A stretch of DNA of 63,819 nucleotides, counting the filler, from an uncultured archaeon (lineage in GTDB: Archaea; Iainarchaeota; Iainarchaeia; Iainarchaeales; 1-14-0-10-31-34): the NCBI GenBank assembly GCA_964442255.1. It is 9 parts of 9 records of this genome, joined end to end, with 100 filler letters (N's around TTAATTAATTAA, not from the genome) between each part and the next. Parts side by side here need not be neighbours in the genome. Positions count along the whole stretch, not along the records: positions 54,452 to 60,096 come from CAYTYC010000042.1; 8 more parts are not named here. One strand, 5' to 3'. Each line of letters begins with the position of its first letter. Position 1 is the stretch's first letter. Both the position numbers and the translations under genes were made by a program. Positions 9,861-60,803 of the stretch are shown here, piece after piece. The notes under the pieces were generated by a model. The model saw only the letters and a list, made by a program, of their open reading frames with translations, made no database searches and had not been told where the DNA came from.

Positions 9861-10311
9861 ATGAAGAAAGACGAAAACTGGGGGAAACAAAACTCAACAA
9901 TCCTGAGGCTGCAGTTGTTAGCGATTGGGTTTGTTGTATTATTAGTGTTTCACACTTTCGGGGAAACCTTTTTCAATACCCTTCCCCTTTTGGCGGTGAA
10001 CGCGCTTCTGGCCCTGTACTTCTTTTACCTGCTTTTTGTTTCCGCGAAAAACGTTTTTGGAACGGAATTCAAGAAGATTGCGGTTTTCTTTCTTGCGCTG
10101 TTTGCTTTGGTTCAGGCAATGTGGGCGGTCACATTGATTGTGCAGGAATATGAGATGAGGTTCAACATCTCCTTTGGATTGATTTTCCTTTTGTTTGCCT
10201 TGTTTATTTTTGCGCGCTTTGGGTTAAGCAAAGGAAACGCGAAAGGAAAGGTTTTAAGCAGCAGCGGAGGCGTTACAGTTGTGGAAACCCCCTTTAATTT
10301 GGGCTCTTTCA
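9861..10311 (+). CDS. membrane protein, 5' part (continues at 41339-41509)
   Basis: Four TM helices; the last 55 nt (10257-10311) are identical to 41339-41393. Confidence 0.75.
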
Positions 10312-30949: not shown

Positions 30950-31207
30950 TCCCGCCTTAGCATAGCAAACTTTTTCAAAAAAAGTTTGAACAAAAAAAGC
31001 TTTTTAAGAAACCTTGTAAATGCTTTGCGTCGTTAAAAAACCTTTCGGTTTTTTGACGCGTCGGAAACCTGCAGGTTTCCAACGTTACGAGGCCCCGCAA
31101 ACCTTAAAGTTTGCAAGGAAGCTTTAGCAAAAAAGCAAAAACCGGCTAACGCCGAAAACTTTTAGAAAAAGTTTGATCAAAATATGTGCTAAGGCAATGT
31201 ACTGCAA
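30950..31207 (+). other. tRNA-Tyr 5' leader: copy of the tRNA 5' end, hairpin element, antisense copy
   Basis: TCCCGCCTTAGCATAG at 30950-30965 equals 31208-31223; TGTGCTAAGGC at 31185-31195; the core is homologous to the tRNA-Pro intron. Confidence 0.8.
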
Positions 31208-31208
31208 T

Positions 31209-54451: not shown

Positions 54452-54888
54452 TCTGGCTTGAAGTTTCCTGCCGTAAAGTAAGTGCAGAGGACGAAGTCAT
54501 AGCTGTGCCTGAAGATTTCGTTTTTGGTTTTTCTGCCTAAATCCACGGCATCAAAATATAGAGCCTTAACCTTGTCTGCAAGCTTTGCTTTGGCTATCTC
54601 TTTCCTGGATTTTTCAACCATTTTTTTGCTGTTGTCAAATCCCACATATACGCCTGTTTTTTCCCATATTGGTTCTTTGCTGAGAAGCAGCGGAAGCCTG
54701 CTTTCCCCCACGCCTATGTCAAGTATTTTCAGTGGCCCTTTGGATTCCAGCGTTTTTTCTCCCAGTATTTTTTTCAGTTCCCTGAATTCCGCCTTTTGGG
54801 ATTCTATAAGGTAAGGAGCCATCCACTTTTCATTCAGCGTGCGGCCAACAATTTTTTCGTTTTCATACATTACAAAAGTTTTTTCCAC
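54452..54888 (-). CDS. SAM-dependent methyltransferase, 3'-truncated
   Basis: ILDIGVG, VGFDNS. Confidence 0.75.
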
Positions 54889-54972
54889 AGATTATTTTTT
54901 CTCCAAAAGGCACAAAAAGATATCCCCCACTGAAAGGAAAAGCTTTTTATTGCTAAACGCGCTTTTTCTGTT

Positions 54973-55995
54973 ATGGCGTTAACAAAGAAAGAAGAGCAGC
55001 TACTTAAACGAATAAAGGTTTACTCCGAAAACGACCCCAATAACCCGGAGTTTCCGCCCGAAAACCCGAAGTTTCCCGCAACCCCGACATACAAGATTGA
55101 GGTTCCAGGTTTTTCAAACGTTTGGCTGAAAGACGAAAGCGTTAACCCGACCGGAACACACAAGGACAGGATGGCCTGGGAAATGGTCGTAACATACAGG
55201 GACATTTTGCTTGCAAAGAAAAGGGGGCAAGTGAAAGGCGCCTTGCCTCAAATGTCAATCATCAGTTCAGGCTCGGCCGCAATAGCCATTCAAAAAAGGC
55301 TGAAAGAATACGGGCTGCCTGACTTAAAGGTTTTGATTGACACCAATGCGGACGAAAAAATGATTAAGGCAATGAAAAAACTCGGCTGCGAAATATTTGA
55401 AGTTGACCTGGGAAAAAAGGCTTTTGAATGGAGAGAAATTCTCCACTTGACCCACAACACCCCCGGCTTTGACATAACTTCCTGCGAAGCCTTGGACCCC
55501 ACGACAAGGTTTTACGACTGGCTGAGCTATGAAATAATCAACATTTCCCCTGATTACTGCTTTATTCCATTCGGCACAGGAAACCTTTACGAAAATGTTT
55601 TGAACATCAACAAGAAAGAGGTTTCCACAGCCCACCATGACCCAAGATTCAGGGGAGACGTTAAAAGGCTCAGAAACTGCCGTTTTTTGGGCGCAACATC
55701 CAACAACCCGAAAAGCAAGGCAGACAAGCTTTATTCCCCGCACCTTCCATTTGTTCACGTTGACGAGCAGTGGATAAGGGTTTACCGTTACTCGGGGTTC
55801 TGCGGAAATGATTCAAATGTTCACCTCCTCAAAGAAAGTTTTCTGGATAAAGCAATTAAACTGGCTGAAGCACAGGGCATAGAGTGCGAGCCGTCGGGAA
55901 TTGCGGGCCTGGCTTTAATGCTGCAAATGAAAAACAAGCTGCCAAAAAACAAGAAAATGCTGGTCGTAAACACAGGAAAAACAAAAATTCCCTGA
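54973..55995 (+). CDS. PLP-dependent fold-type II enzyme (threonine synthase-like)
   Basis: LKDESVNPTGTHKDR, SSGSA, PFGTGN, CEPSG, NTG. Confidence 0.8.
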   Translation: MALTKKEEQLLKRIKVYSENDPNNPEFPPENPKFPATPTYKIEVPGFSNVWLKDESVNPTGTHKDRMAWEMVVTYRDILLAKKRGQVKGALPQMSIISSGSAAIAIQKRLKEYGLPDLKVLIDTNADEKMIKAMKKLGCEIFEVDLGKKAFEWREILHLTHNTPGFDITSCEALDPTTRFYDWLSYEIINISPDYCFIPFGTGNLYENVLNINKKEVSTAHHDPRFRGDVKRLRNCRFLGATSNNPKSKADKLYSPHLPFVHVDEQWIRVYRYSGFCGNDSNVHLLKESFLDKAIKLAEAQGIECEPSGIAGLALMLQMKNKLPKNKKMLVVNTGKTKIP

Positions 55996-56035
55996 TTGAA
56001 AAAAAAATGGCTGCCCCAAGAAGATCTGAACCGCT

Positions 56036-56356
56036 TTAAGCCCCCACTGTTACCGCTGTTTTCATGGCTTCCTTTACCGTCCCGGTTTGCCTGCTTTTTT
56101 CCTTAAACTCTTTCGGGGTGTAGCAGAATATTTCCAGTGGCGCGGTTTCAGTCCAGTAGTCATACATTTTTTCGGTTCGCCTGAAAAAATTCGTTCCCTC
56201 AAACGCCTTGCTCACAACTAGCACATCAAAATCGGATTCCAGCAACGCGTTGCCTTTTGCGCGGGAACCAAACAAAAACACTTTGGCGTCAGGGAAATCC
56301 GCCTTAAGCCTTTCCGCGAATTCCTTCACTTTTTCTGAATCTGTTTTTCCGCCCAT
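56036..56356 (-). CDS. minimal nucleotidyltransferase (MNT) antitoxin
   Basis: LFGSRAKG...SDFDVLVVS. Confidence 0.88.
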   Translation of the reverse strand: MGGKTDSEKVKEFAERLKADFPDAKVFLFGSRAKGNALLESDFDVLVVSKAFEGTNFFRRTEKMYDYWTETAPLEIFCYTPKEFKEKSRQTGTVKEAMKTAVTVGA

Positions 56357-56437
56357 TCGAACACCTTCTTTGCTTCCCCCAATAAATCGGCTGCAATCTC
56401 GCTGTCGTAAGCCTCTTTTGGGAATCTCCTTTCTCAT
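56326..56437 (-). pseudogene. internally deleted HEPN toxin remnant
   Basis: MRKE start joined out of frame to PKEAYDSEIAADLLGEAKKVFEWAEKQI*, overlapping the MNT start. Confidence 0.6.
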
Positions 56438-56523
56438 GAAAAACACCAAACCAGAAACAGTATTTAATTATAACCAAGAAAAGGGATAGCCCGGGGGAGA
56501 TTCGGGCATGGTGCAACCATCCA

Positions 56524-56745
56524 TTAAAGCAATTTCAGGAATTCTTCTCTTGAAATGCCGGTTTGTTTCAGGATTGACAACAGCGTCCCGGGAACAACAA
56601 TTTTGTGGTTTGGAACAGTTACCCTCCTGAAAGGCGCCTTGTTTTCCCTTAAAATAAAGTGGCTGCCTGTCTGGTGGTCGACTTCAAAACCGGTTTTCCG
56701 CAACGCCTTTATTATTTTGGTTCCGGAAAGAACGGGAAGCTTCAT
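56524..56745 (-). CDS. hicA: HicA family toxin
   Basis: LPVLSG...HQTGSH...VPNH...GTLLSIL. Confidence 0.9.
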   Translation of the reverse strand: MKLPVLSGTKIIKALRKTGFEVDHQTGSHFILRENKAPFRRVTVPNHKIVVPGTLLSILKQTGISREEFLKLL

Positions 56746-56964
56746 TTAAGCCACAGAAACAGCCGCGATTTCAACAGTTCTTTCAAAAACCTTTTCCTCA
56801 GGGTGCTTTTTCAGGCTCTCCAAATAGCCCTTAACCGCATCCTTAATGTTTTTCAAAGCTTGGGCCTTGGTTTTTCCCTGCGAAATGCATCCAAGCAGCC
56901 CGGGAACTTCGGCCACAAACCAGCCTGTTTCAGCATCCTTTGTCAAAACAACTTTATACTCCAT
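56746..56964 (-). CDS. hicB: HicB family antitoxin
   Basis: VPGLLGCISQGKTKAQALKNIKDA. Confidence 0.9.
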   Translation of the reverse strand: MEYKVVLTKDAETGWFVAEVPGLLGCISQGKTKAQALKNIKDAVKGYLESLKKHPEEKVFERTVEIAAVSVA

Positions 56965-57004
56965 AAAAACCAACAAACATTATGCAGGATAGGCTTTTTA
57001 TAAT

Positions 57005-57077
57005 TAGCCCCGAGGAGATTCGAACTCCTGTCAAGAGGTCCAGAACCTCTTATGCTTGGCCGCTACACTACGGGGCT
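57005..57077 (-). tRNA. tRNA-Gln(CTG), no intron
   Basis: AGCCCCG/CGGGGCT-A acceptor, AGAGG-TTCTGGA-CCTCT anticodon arm, GTTCGAATC. Confidence 0.95.
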
Positions 57078-57137
57078 GTGCTCCGCAGCCTGTTTTTTGG
57101 TGAACCTTTTTTTAAAAGGTTCCCAGGCTACGGGGCT
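57078..57137 (-). other. tRNA-Gln 5' leader: copy of the tRNA 5' end, hairpin, antisense copy
   Basis: AGCCCCGTAG duplicated (57128-57137); GCCCCGTAGCCTG pairs with CAGGCTGCGGAGC. Confidence 0.75.
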
Positions 57138-57166
57138 ATCAGAAAAAATCTAATTAAGCAGGTTAT

Positions 57167-57553
57167 TTAACCTTTTCTTCTTGCCGGATCGCTTCCGCCA
57201 AAGGCAATTAAGCGGTCTTTTACTTTTTTACCCAACCAGTATTTTCCATGCGTTCCCTCCCCATACTCGTCTATCATCGACTCCAATCTTTTCGCCAAAA
57301 GCTCTGCAAGGGTTTTTTCTTGGAGACGGCCTTGATGTTCCATGCTTTGAGCACTCCTTTGCACCAGCCTGAAAAGCCATAACGCTGAATTGAAATCAGG
57401 GTCAGACCATTCTGCAGCCGGCTTTTCAAGCAAAGCAGTCAAAGCCTTTCGCCTTTTTTTTCTGTCCCGCCCGTCGGCTTTTCGGTTGGAAGGTTCTGCA
57501 GCCTTTTTTCCGCCGCCCCGTGAACCTCTGCCCCCTGCTTTTTTTGCCGGCAT
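57167..57553 (-). CDS. basic hypothetical protein
   Basis: K/R-rich ORF with no recognisable motif. Confidence 0.5.
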   Translation of the reverse strand: MPAKKAGGRGSRGGGKKAAEPSNRKADGRDRKKRRKALTALLEKPAAEWSDPDFNSALWLFRLVQRSAQSMEHQGRLQEKTLAELLAKRLESMIDEYGEGTHGKYWLGKKVKDRLIAFGGSDPARRKG

Positions 57554-57620
57554 TCAAGTAAAAAAAGGCGGAAAAACTTAATTAAGGCTTCGTTTTGCGG
57601 GAGCCTCAATAAGGTGAAAA

Positions 57621-58328
57621 CTATTTCCCGAACCTTCTCTGCCTTTCGTAAAATTCGTCAACCGCAAGCGCCAAATCCTGCTGCGAAAATTCCGGCCAAA
57701 ACTTGTTCAAAAAATAGAGCTCGGAATAGGAGGACTGGTAGGTGAGAAAACCGCTTAATCTTTGAGTGAAGCCTGTCCTGACAATCATGTCAGGGTCCCG
57801 GAAACCGGAGTAAAGGTAATTCTTGAAAGAACCTTCATTCAAAGTTGAAAGGTCAAGGTTGTTTTGCTTGTATTGTTCCGCGATTTTTTTTGCGGCATCC
57901 ACTATTTCGGCCTGCCCGTTGTAGCCGAGCGCCATTGTGACAACCTTTTTTTTGAAGGACGAAGTGAAGTCCTCTGCCTTAAGCATTTTTTCCTGCAATT
58001 TTTTTGGAAGTCCCTCTGTTCGCCCGATAAACTTGAGCCTCACTTCATTTCCGGTGAAAGTTGAAGTGCTCCAAACCTTGTCCAGTTCGCGCTCAAAGAT
58101 TTTGAAAAGAATTCTCAGTTCCGCGCTTTTGCGGGTGAGGTTTTCCAAAGACAGGGTGTAAAAGGTTCCTGCCTTAATTTTGGGGTAAAAGTTAAGCCAG
58201 TCCAGGACATCCCAAGCCTTTTTTGTGCCAAGCTGATAGGAGTGAAGCAGGGAGGCGCCGCTTTTAAGCGCATACCTTCTGTTTCCGTCGGGAATGAATC
58301 CGATTGAGGTTAACTCCAAAATGCCCAC
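57621..58328 (-). CDS. uppS: cis-prenyltransferase
   Basis: IPDGNRR, SLEN, YNG, PDMIVRTG...RLSGF, RRFGK. Confidence 0.92.
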   Translation of the reverse strand: MGILELTSIGFIPDGNRRYALKSGASLLHSYQLGTKKAWDVLDWLNFYPKIKAGTFYTLSLENLTRKSAELRILFKIFERELDKVWSTSTFTGNEVRLKFIGRTEGLPKKLQEKMLKAEDFTSSFKKKVVTMALGYNGQAEIVDAAKKIAEQYKQNNLDLSTLNEGSFKNYLYSGFRDPDMIVRTGFTQRLSGFLTYQSSYSELYFLNKFWPEFSQQDLALAVDEFYERQRRFGK

Positions 58329-58712
58329 CTTTTAATGCAATATAGACGTAAATCTAAGTCAAATAAACTAATAAACCTTATTAACTATTTAAATATTATG
58401 CTCAAGCAGTTAAAGCCCATGGGAGGCAATAACATGAAAAAACGGCCCAGGGAAAGGGACGAATTCGCGGAAAACGTGAAAAAACTGTTTGTAAATTTCA
58501 GCGAAACACGGGAATTCAGGCCAGAGCTGGGAAGCGCGGAAAAAATCAGGTCGGAACTGGAGGAAATAAAGGTTCCGTCGCTGAAAGCGCTGAAAGAAGA
58601 GTAAGTCTTTACGGCAGTCTGCAAAAGCCGTGAAAAAAAAAAGCAAGGCTTCCGGGGTTTCCTGAAAAAAAATTCCCAAAGACTCAAAAGCCTCAAAAAA
58701 AAGTGTAAAGCA

Positions 58713-59063
58713 ATGCTCTTCAACAAAACACGCAACAGAAAACTTGTCGAGAAAACGGAGATTGCTGATTCTTTCCTGAAAAGGTTTCGGGGACTGATGT
58801 TCAGGGGAAAGCCTGATTACGCGTTAGTGTTTGAACTGGAAAAAGAAACGCGTTTGGGGGCAAGCATTCACATGCTTTTCGTTTTTTTTCCGATTGACGT
58901 GGTTTACCTGGATTCGGGGAAAAAAGTGGTGGACATTAAATCAGGGTTAAAGCCATGGAGCCTGAATTACACGCCGAAAAAGGCCGCAAAATATTTTGTG
59001 GAATTTCCTGTGGGAAAATTGCGGGAAAAGATTGGATTGGGCGATGTTTTGCAATGGGATTAA
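58713..59063 (+). CDS. DUF192 family protein
   Basis: RFRGLMF, IHMLFVFFPIDVVYLD. Confidence 0.9.
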   Translation: MLFNKTRNRKLVEKTEIADSFLKRFRGLMFRGKPDYALVFELEKETRLGASIHMLFVFFPIDVVYLDSGKKVVDIKSGLKPWSLNYTPKKAAKYFVEFPVGKLREKIGLGDVLQWD

Positions 59064-59095
59064 ATTTAAATTAGGGTTTAAGGACAGTATTATCG

Positions 59096-59329
59096 GTGAA
59101 GGAAATGGAAAGAATTGAATGCTCTGCGGTAATCGTTAAGGGGGAAGTGGCTTTTGTGGCTTTTTGCCCGGAGCTGGGGGTCACAAGCCAGGGGAAAACC
59201 GAGAAAACCGCTTTTTCTAACCTGAAAGAAGCCGTTGAACTTTACCTGGAAGACGAGGATATAAGGGAGCAGCTGAAAACGCATCCTGTAAAGAAAGCGA
59301 AAATAAAAACCATTGCTGTCAGCGCTTAA
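59096..59329 (+). CDS. hicB: HicB family antitoxin
   Basis: CPELGVTSQGKT...NLKEAVELYLE. Confidence 0.88.
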   Translation: MKEMERIECSAVIVKGEVAFVAFCPELGVTSQGKTEKTAFSNLKEAVELYLEDEDIREQLKTHPVKKAKIKTIAVSA

Positions 59330-59339
59330 GGCGGTTTTT

Positions 59340-59573
59340 GTGCCAAGGCTTCCAATAATTTCCGGAAAACGGCTGGTTAAAATTCTTTCAAATAACGGCT
59401 TTGAAGTTGTTGGAAGGAAAGGAAGCCATGTGCGGCTCAAAAAGAAAACAAAAGAAAAAACGCTTGTAACCGTTGTGCCGCTGCATAAAGAGCTTGACCC
59501 GGGAACTTTGCTTGCGATACTGAAGCAATGCGAAAGTTCAAGGGAAGAATTTGATTCAATTTTGGCGAAGTAA
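59340..59573 (+). CDS. hicA: HicA family toxin
   Basis: LPIISGK...RKGSHV...VPLHKELDPGTL. Confidence 0.9.
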   Translation: MPRLPIISGKRLVKILSNNGFEVVGRKGSHVRLKKKTKEKTLVTVVPLHKELDPGTLLAILKQCESSREEFDSILAK

Positions 59574-59618
59574 AAAATAGAGGGAATTCGTAAAACAATA
59601 ACAGTGGACACAGAAAAC

Positions 59619-60096
59619 TTATTTTAGTTCCCCCAATTTTTTGTTTTTCGCAAGTTTTGTTAAAGCTTTTTTCAATGCTGTCAAAATGGTTTTCTCTGGT
59701 TTATCCAAGATTATGGCTGCTTCTTCCACAGTTAGGTTTCTTTTTTTGCTTGAAAAGAAAATAACCTCAACAACATTTCGTTGCGTAGCAGCCAAAGAAT
59801 CCAAAGCGCTGCCAATTACTGCAGTTCTTTCTTTAAGGATTAAATCGGTTTCAGAGGTTCTCTTGGTTACGGCAACTCTTTCCCCGTAATCCCAACCTAA
59901 ACCATGAATTCCCAGTTCTTCGGATAACTCAGCCATTCTGCGCCAGTAATCATTCCAGTATCTGGCAATGCCTTCCCTTAGTTTTCTTTGAAAATCCGGG
60001 TCCTGATGCAACCTCCTCATCCTCTCATCCCTCGCCCTAGCAAAATCCGGGTCCTGATGCAACCTCCTCATCCTCTCATCCCTCGCCCTAGCAAAA
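59619..60096 (-). CDS. 17-aa repeat protein with a C-terminal sigma70 region-4-like HTH; 5'-truncated
   Basis: 51-bp tandem (59991-60096) encoding MRRLHQDPDFARARDER; ALDSLAATQRNVVEVIF...TVEEAAIIL...KALTKL. Confidence 0.65.
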
Positions 60097-60541: not shown

Positions 60542-60803
60542 TGGGGCCCCGGGGATTTGAACCCCGGTCTACACCACGTTGGAACGCTTTTTTCTTTTCC
60601 CACGGCTTTTCGCCGAAGGCGAGTTTTTTGATAAAACTTTTCCTTGCAAACCCAAAGGTTTGCGAGGCTCCGCAACGTTGGAAACCTGCGGGTTTCCGAC
60701 GCGTCGAAAAACCGAAGGTTTTTCAACGAAGCTTTGCTTTTACAAGGTTTCCAAAAAGTTTTTCCCCAAGGTGCAATGCTAGTCCAGGCTACACCAAGGC
60801 CCC
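60542..60803 (-). tRNA. tRNA-Pro(GGG) with a 187-nt BHB intron (60577-60763)
   Basis: GGGGCCT/GGGCCCC-A acceptor, GCACC/GGTGT anticodon stem, loop TTGGGG|T, BHB helix TTGG/CCAA with 3-nt bulges. Confidence 0.9.

Follow-up and report, generated by a model that had tools for sequence, protein, structure and literature searches.

A decoy, hairpin and antisense leader before an archaeal tRNA-Gln gene: a candidate self-masking scar of a recurrent kind

Between a TATA-like box and the first base of a tRNA-Gln(CUG) gene in an uncultured archaeon lie some 60 bases that give the beginning of the tRNA twice more, once directly and once inverted, around a small hairpin, and the question that this locus raises is what such a leader is and how the tRNA behind it can fold. 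The window (the whole stretch of DNA analysed, 63,819 nt) is a chain of short contigs from a 1.28-Mb metagenome bin (51 contigs, 46% G+C; labelled G000 here), and the locus lies on its contig C42 (5.6 kb; window 54452–60096). Judged from sequence, the host is a DPANN archaeon, since the closest named relatives of the neighbouring undecaprenyl-diphosphate synthase gene belong to Candidatus Iainarchaeum (57–64% amino-acid identity).

The features of the locus all lie on the minus strand. The tRNA (57077–57005; ARAGORN) is intact and has no intron, and it matches the Rfam tRNA model RF00005 with 59.3 bits (threshold 29, E 2.8e-10), the leader falling outside the match; tRNA is the only Rfam family found in the window, both at the gathering threshold and at E ≤ 1. 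Reading upstream from tRNA base 1, a two-base linker in the sequence, AC (57079–57078), is followed by a 13-base antisense, CAGGCTGCGGAGC (57092–57080), which pairs with bases 14 to 2 of the decoy, and by a run of six A residues that are single-stranded in the fold (57098–57093) and form the tail of an apical hairpin module. This module, GG-GAACCTTTT-AAA-AAAAGGTTC-A-CC (57123–57099), has a 9-bp stem with two further base pairs across a bulged A, and contains the hairpin GAACCTTTT-AAA-AAAAGGTTC (57122–57102) that is evident from both sequence and fold. The decoy, AGCCCCGTAGCCTG (57137–57124), is identical to the tRNA over bases 1–10, and has diverged from it over bases 11–14, as have the antisense partners; in relatives this region of the decoy reads TCTAG and the antisense matches. 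The first 10–15 bases of tRNA-Gln(CUG) therefore occur in three copies, direct in the decoy, inverted in the antisense and direct again in the working gene, and the ...GAGCAC junction at which leader and tRNA meet recurs in the Gln(UUG) paralogue and at locus L080 of a relative. Further upstream the sequence has a T6 run (57148–57143) and the TATA-like box TTAAATAA (57170–57163), which overlaps the stop codon (57169–57167) of a 128-aa upstream ORF and whose 5' and 3' edges lie 33 and 26 nt upstream of the decoy. In archaeal promoters about 26 nt separate the centre of the TATA box from the start of the transcript, and TTAAATAA, if used, would place the start of transcription about 0–3 nt before the decoy. 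The ORF itself (57167–57553, minus strand) would encode a very basic protein and lies between the synthase gene and tRNA-Gln; in several relatives the tRNA promoter follows directly after the synthase stop codon.

Decoy bases 2–14 and the antisense pair at 12 of 13 positions, with eleven Watson–Crick pairs, one U8–G pair and a sole mismatch of C4 opposite A. The 63-nt leader folds at −30.1 kcal/mol as against −12.6 ± 2.6 in 200 shuffles, none of which did as well (z −6.65), and leader and tRNA together fold into the leader hairpin plus the cloverleaf (z −5.46). The initial annotation had described this order of decoy, hairpin and antisense before tRNA-Gln, had counted 12 of 13 paired positions, and had assigned the TATA-like box to the decoy rather than to the tRNA. 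The layout is real, its description and coordinates being correct on the minus strand; the count of pairs is confirmed from sequence and fold; and the place of the box agrees both with the sequence here and with genus g2, in which the promoter region abuts the tRNA when the leader is missing and the decoy in the genome that carries it.

The consequences of this pairing for the tRNA were examined in a partition-function model, in which the real acceptor stem of the tRNA-Gln(CUG) locus as it stands has a probability of 0.88, and of 0.975 if the leader is taken away. Shuffling the antisense reduces this to 0.012, the decoy then taking the 3' strand of the stem, and shuffling the decoy reduces it to 0.27, the antisense then taking the real 5' strand, while shuffling both gives 0.47. 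According to the model, decoy or antisense alone would be harmful and the two together would cancel; that each half is predicted to be harmful alone may well be the reason why the pairing is kept and why duplications are seen only with an inverted copy. For the leaders of two relatives, G008 and G057, the equilibrium fold gives the decoy the 3' acceptor strand and leaves the real stem a probability of 0.04–0.055.

Comparison with related genomes indicates where the added bases entered. In genus g2, some 90 nt of upstream sequence are common to genomes G007, G004 and G006; they lead into the tRNA in G007 and G004 and into the decoy in G006, where 59 nt were added after base 15; since the same upstream sequence meets either tRNA or decoy, the decoy stands at the former start of the gene. 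No cassette is present in 19 of the 25 distinct Gln upstream regions among those listed. Across 16 syntenic loci of undecaprenyl-diphosphate synthase (UppS) and tRNA-Gln, a covariance model of seven Gln leaders (R2) gave one full-length match (L085, 84 bits); at L080 the same decoy:antisense stem and ...GAGCAC junction enclose a different small hairpin at the tip, and the ten other UppS loci among the 12 whose upstream regions were inspected have no cassette. Leader-free orthologues, with which the initial annotation had proposed to compare the locus, thus exist, and their tRNA is directly adjoined by the same promoter region. As far as these sequences allow us to judge, the cassette is dispensable.

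The leader is nevertheless no singular accident of this genome. A DNA search of 61 genomes found it, together with its tRNA, in G001, G006, G008, G010 and G057, and when R2 was run over 151 genomes of the order, 25 of its best 32 matches comprised decoy, module, tail, antisense and the downstream tRNA copy; these best matches amount to at least 25 cassettes in at least 23 of the 151 genomes and at least eight families. The tRNAs behind the 25 cassettes are Gln in 16 cases, Asp in four, Glu in two, and Arg, Tyr and Trp in one each, as identified by ARAGORN and by reading the anticodon loops by eye, because ARAGORN miscalls several of the intron-bearing genes. In the 12 best-aligned rows the decoy matches its own tRNA at 12–15 of 15 bases, lineage-specific substitutions included, and for cassettes with long linkers the match was read from the printed sequences. 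The duplicated length varies from 10 to 23 nt across cassettes, and in a leader of G006 (contig C64) several modules stand between decoy and antisense.

Within G000 itself, the leader of tRNA-Gln(CUG) recurs before the Gln(UUG) gene, which is interrupted by a 170-nt intron and lies in the interior of the 106-kb contig C1. Another leader, of about 240 nt, precedes tRNA-Tyr(GUA) on the plus strand (window 30951–31208; tRNA from 31209, locus to 31440), where a 15-base decoy, CCCGCCTTAGCATAG (30951–30965), is followed by about 215 nt of hairpins (by eye, two clear copies of the module family and others), an antisense and the tRNA. The tRNA-Tyr gene has a long intron after the anticodon; it was called neither by ARAGORN nor by the Rfam scans of the window, and ARAGORN with introns allowed labels the site tRNA-Asp. 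A Tyr leader with the same type of module had been asserted beforehand and does exist at this place, and an antisense specific to each tRNA is seen across the cassettes, the Tyr leader included. The accompanying proposal, that the design arose separately at each locus, stands for Gln as against Tyr and the other tRNA types and fails among the Gln leaders, since the two paralogous leaders agree at 57 of 60 bases when the tRNA bodies agree at only about 62 of 75 (exon borders from ARAGORN), and the leaders of other genomes align with them column by column.

Moreover, script scans revealed mirror-image cassettes behind four tRNAs of this genome, Ser(UGA), Ala(CGC), Leu(UAA) and Leu(GAG), in the order tRNA 3' end, antisense, opposite-strand module and a 17–20-nt copy of the 3' end. 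The tRNA-Leu(GAG) trailer (G000:C17:22700–23360, tRNA on the minus strand) consists of tandem units, with an assembly gap among them, each made up of the last 20 nt of the tRNA with antisense and module. A further cassette lies at the junction of the ribosomal protein genes L23 and L2 (G000:C5, about 9900–9990, plus strand), with a 23-nt duplication that takes in the stop codon of L23 and the start codon of L2 and with one wobble pair, on the strand opposite the mRNA. This duplication also opens a 22-codon frame at the spare ATG; the frame closes with the duplicated TGA immediately ahead of the true start of L2, and translational coupling may in this way be preserved. All cassettes of the genome follow one order, namely outer copy, hairpin, A-tail, inverted copy and working gene, whichever strand is transcribed. 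A genome-wide search for pairs of direct 9-mer repeats that enclose an inverted copy gave 104 raw matches and served as a finder (of the Ser and Ala trailers), not as a clean control, because most matches are coding repeats or hairpin arrays. In the leader of tRNA-Thr(CGU) (G000:C1:64080–64104) we also noted CTACTGCG, the complement of tRNA bases 3–10, placed 24 nt upstream and followed by a tRNA-start-like GCCCTTGTAGCTC, which may be a decayed cassette without module.

The hairpin module also occurs outside the cassettes. Its pattern matches 85 times in the 1.28 Mb, in arrays and singly, and a 28-nt stretch at the tRNA-Gln(CUG) module is 100% identical to a copy at G000:C23:70–97. Over 28 nt the module is 93–100% identical between families, all 25 cassettes share an identical U4/A4 core, and a tail of the type RNSAAAA follows the hairpin across the module family. 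By our reading of the lists, 81 of the 85 copies can be evaluated; eight of these have a duplicated target, all eight with an inverted copy as well, and 73 have neither a direct nor an inverted target copy. The suggestion that the central module is common to the Gln and Tyr leaders therefore holds, and its being special to the design does not, given that it is a genome-wide repeat of which eight in 81 copies sit in cassettes and that the L080 stem has another tip. Modules also occur directly before or after other tRNAs, within tRNA introns and after the 3' end of 16S rRNA; the last of these copies (G000:C17:3162–3191; GGATCACCTCC...) directly adjoins the rRNA, and the repeat is thus present in the rRNA spacer too.

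The helix itself is well maintained. In the seven Gln leaders 88.3% of helix cells are paired and five pairs have changed on both sides, slid registers giving at most 50%; in the 25 cassettes 90.6% are paired and 14 of 22 pairs have changed on both sides, slid registers giving at most 52%, in an alignment that was fitted to the model structure and in which related genomes are not independent. Copying from the target alone would give much of this pairing and covariation signal. In the present genome the decoy departs from the tRNA at bases 11 and 14, the antisense partner of each having changed with it, and G010 and G062 also have double changes away from their own tRNAs; as sequence evidence, we regard the double changes at bases 11 and 14 as probably more telling than the covariation in the alignment. 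In columns 12–18 of the seven-leader alignment the non-Watson–Crick cells are all G–U on the tRNA strand (five cells, no mismatch), and this bias in the upper stem hints at selection on the RNA, albeit in a small sample and with the L23/L2 wobble on the other strand. Decoy position 4 is unpaired in all seven Gln leaders, which have an interruption at positions 3–5 throughout, as by eye do Asp and other Gln cassettes, and in no case does the antisense retain the complete G-run by which it would copy the 3' acceptor strand of the tRNA.

Considering these findings together, we suggest, with about as much confidence as doubt, that the 60 bases between promoter and tRNA-Gln(CUG) are a dispensable scar of direct–inverted–direct duplication or insertion, with a repeat hairpin at its tip, which masks itself and is removed by RNase P. 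It would be one case of a recurrent and apparently undescribed kind at tRNA gene ends. Transcription would run from the old promoter and start just before the decoy; decoy and antisense would pair once both had been made and close the leader into one hairpin; the real 5' strand would then be free for the acceptor stem, and RNase P would cut the leader off. Since an archaeal gene for RNase P RNA is present (97.9 bits against a threshold of 84), removal of the leader in the usual way may be expected, and the weak base of the stem may let the enzyme reach position −1. Selection would keep the stem, because either half, if unpaired, would misfold the tRNA, the decoy by competing for the 3' acceptor strand and the antisense by capturing the real 5' strand. 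In G008 and G057 the order of synthesis would decide, decoy and antisense being made first and pairing first; going by their modelled equilibrium folds, either self-masking needs the order of transcription or the model would be wrong.

As to the origin of the scar, two routes appear likeliest, a small copying error at the gene end, by template switching or fold-back, in whose loop the repeat hairpin was placed, and a single insertion event that copied its own target. Neither an exact direct-repeat pattern run over 196 genomes nor the module list of G000 yielded a direct repeat lacking the inverted copy, a form from which the order of events could have been read. Three points in the sequences would speak for two steps, a copying error and later colonization of the loop by the repeat, namely the L080 stem with its other tip, the several modules in the Tyr and G006 C64 leaders, and the lack of target copies at most modules. 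A single event, on the other hand, is suggested by the constant polarity, by the link between direct and inverted copy in eight of eight cases, and by breaks at the palindromes CTAG and TTCGAA. The conservation of the module, the unpaired decoy position 4 and the spread over at least eight families would seem to fit a function as well as they fit a scar.

That the leader is functional, with the decoy/antisense hairpin as a built-in control of tRNA maturation, is accordingly the first alternative to be weighed, and we hold it possible but unlikely. It could act as a folding switch that sets the share of RNase P-competent pre-tRNA-Gln, offer the conserved module to a binding protein, or give rise to a stable leader RNA. 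Its occurrence in at least 23 of 151 genomes and the nearly invariant module would suit such a role, as would the constant interruption in the Gln leaders, and the four segments (decoy, antisense, 5' strand, 3' strand) have a 1:2 / 2:3 / 3:4 pairing topology in which two folds compete. Yet close relatives, including members of the same genus with the same promoter, do without the cassette, no signal or partner is known, and the layout recurs at 3' ends, where the module lies on the other strand, and between two protein genes, a place at which a switch of tRNA maturation would make no sense.

Rather unlikely, in our estimation, is a new small mobile element whose hairpin and A-tail insert at gene ends and which itself makes the direct and inverted target copies, for example by snap-back synthesis at a staggered break. 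Consistent with it, every one of the eight modules with a duplicated target has the inverted copy too; decoy, hairpin, tail, antisense and gene interior keep their order at 5' ends, 3' ends and L23/L2; and an exact direct-repeat pattern found four matches among 196 genomes, all four containing module and antisense. The variable length of the duplication (10–23 nt) is as in repair-type rather than transposase-type insertion, and by eye the decoy ends at the palindrome CTAG in Gln, Asp and Glu tRNAs and at the palindrome TTCGAA at 3' ends. Against this, 73 of 81 modules show no target copies, the L080 stem lacks this module, and, since several modules stand in the Tyr leader and in one leader of G006, modules can arrive later. 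An unpaired tail between hairpin and antisense would, moreover, be hard to obtain by simple fold-back priming, and no enzyme is linked to the module: the genome has two Y1 transposase genes (PF01797), neither flanked by it, and neither Cas1 nor reverse transcriptase was found in this 93.8% complete genome. One of the Y1 genes belongs to an IS200/IS605-type pair, in which the transposase is followed by a TnpB-like frame (G000:C21:4189–5100); the other is solitary, stands between G+C-rich palindromes (G000:C9:47136–47477) and might be RAYT-like for the G+C-rich hairpin arrays of the genome.

We think it quite improbable that the module is a portable promoter, its A/T-only centre, TTTTAAAAAAA, being the working TATA box. 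The transcript would therefore start inside the antisense and exclude the decoy. TTTTAAAAAAA begins 40 nt before tRNA base 1, by eye the TATA-like boxes of leader-free Gln genes are similarly spaced (about −41 to −33), and similar TATA-like boxes precede other tRNAs of this genome; the ancestral promoter is, however, retained before the decoy, linkers of 16–42 nt break the spacing in some cassettes, and L080 has no such A/T centre. A transcript of this kind would also begin with about nine bases complementary to the tRNA's own 5' strand.

We attach very little weight to a non-canonical intron, in which the decoy would serve as the genuine 5' exon and everything from the module through the antisense to the second copy would be removed by the archaeal splicing endonuclease, even though the genome is rich in long, odd tRNA introns, splicing anywhere in the repeat would yield a normal tRNA and the decoy occupies the tRNA start of leader-free relatives. 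The second copy alone makes an intact tRNA, an intron would not need the duplication, and no bulge–helix–bulge is conserved in register: a script scan of five pre-tRNAs (two 3-nt bulges and a 4-bp helix as criterion) gave 27–171 chance candidates per sequence, three pre-tRNAs having none in register and two having one loose candidate each, at different positions. An assembly artefact or chimera, which the initial annotation had named as a possible refutation and which a short 5.6-kb contig in a fragmented bin with contig ends full of repeat might suggest, has next to no probability, as the leader recurs inside contig C1 and homologous leaders occur in independently assembled genomes.

A broader proposition, which we regard as conceivable and no better than doubtful, is that in ultra-small archaea the ends of tRNA genes, and of other genes that the cell cannot do without, recurrently gain a cassette of copy, hairpin and reverse copy through a dedicated mechanism or mobile element, which would copy its target into its own arms, and that the cell uses the resulting leaders and trailers. 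If so, such use might lie in the timing of tRNA folding, in access for RNase P or RNase Z, or in the release of a stable small RNA.

Several known systems resemble the cassette in part. Behind tyrT of E. coli lie 178-bp repeats (rtT RNA; Rfam RtT), each carrying a copy of the tRNA's end. Like these, the cassettes are non-coding units beside a tRNA with a copy of its end, and the trailer of tRNA-Leu(GAG) on C17 repeats such units in tandem; the tRNA-Gln cassette differs in that it stands at the 5' end, is archaeal, is a single 60-nt unit, and includes both an explicit inverted copy and a hairpin that is itself a repeat. The two are alike in design alone, and the window has no Rfam RtT match at the gathering threshold or at E ≤ 1. 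The module, for its part, is short, abundant, palindromic, non-coding and often arrayed, as are REP, BIME and REPIN sequences, and with 85 matches in 1.28 Mb it is a short palindromic repeat in many extragenic copies, in a genome that also encodes two proteins of the Y1 transposase family. Unlike REPs, the cassette has direct and inverted copies of its target; a Y1 gene flanked by the repeat, as in the REP/RAYT arrangement, was not found, one Y1 gene being part of an IS605-type tnpA–tnpB pair and the other being accompanied by G+C-rich palindromes. Small rearrangements of the order duplication, inverted copy, duplication are known from human and bacterial genetics as products of template switching at the replication fork. 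The cassettes share with them the direct–inverted–direct order and the breaks at short palindromes (CTAG, TTCGAA), and depart from them in their 10–23-nt scale, their recurrence at gene ends, the repeat hairpin at the turn and their long retention.

Other classes fit less well. The inverted arms copy each target and not the element, and the duplications (10–23 nt) have no fixed length, so that a MITE is not indicated. For a C/D box sRNA, linked to a tRNA as in Nanoarchaeum, by eye UGAUGA is absent from the tRNA strand of the leader, where a CUGA immediately before the decoy is all that is seen; if a module has an ATC tail, its opposite strand does read UGAUGA, and by eye no matching D box was seen. 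An integrase attachment-site remnant is not supported either, as the repeats flank a mere 50 nt, made up of hairpin and inverted copy, and no coding remnant fits. In the split tRNA genes of Nanoarchaeum equitans and in bulge–helix–bulge introns of archaea, extra RNA pairs through lineage-specific complementary stretches (PMC4033280). The cassette is likewise extra RNA beside a tRNA with lineage-specific complementarity; unlike the pairing in split tRNAs, which builds a bulge–helix–bulge and joins exons, its helix is continuous with one mismatch and both partners lie in the leader. In the accessible portions of the literature outside subscription journals, no such cassettes are described for DPANN tRNA introns and leaders, for tyrT/rtT or for archaeal MITEs at tRNAs, and likewise none for pre-tRNA leaders or for tRNA gene fragments and duplications.

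What the cassettes amount to is a defined, recurring architecture at tRNA ends across a DPANN order, with at least six tRNA types at 5' ends and both gene ends affected in this genome, each copy being fitted to its own tRNA and kept base-paired. Leaders of tRNAs are usually regarded as short, throw-away spacers. Even if the cassette is only a scar, it shows essential genes surviving insertions, with the gene end duplicated and the spare copy masked, and provides a natural test set for how pre-tRNAs avoid misfolding; if a dedicated mechanism or a use in control lies behind it, it would count as an element of a new class. The cassettes also bear on annotation: a decoy resembles the start of a tRNA, and both ARAGORN and the Rfam tRNA model overlooked the Tyr gene with its long leader.

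Finally, some neighbouring features deserve mention. On the 3' side of tRNA-Gln (window 56036–56976, minus strand) translations contain HicB-like (76 aa), HicA-like (73 aa) and nucleotidyltransferase-like (137 aa) frames, and a second HicB/HicA-like pair, also read from translations, lies at window 59096–59573 on the plus strand. On contig C47, tRNA-Pro(GGG) (window 60542–60803, minus strand) has an intron of about 187 nt made up of several small hairpins, and two tandem G+C-rich hairpin units stand behind its 3' end.
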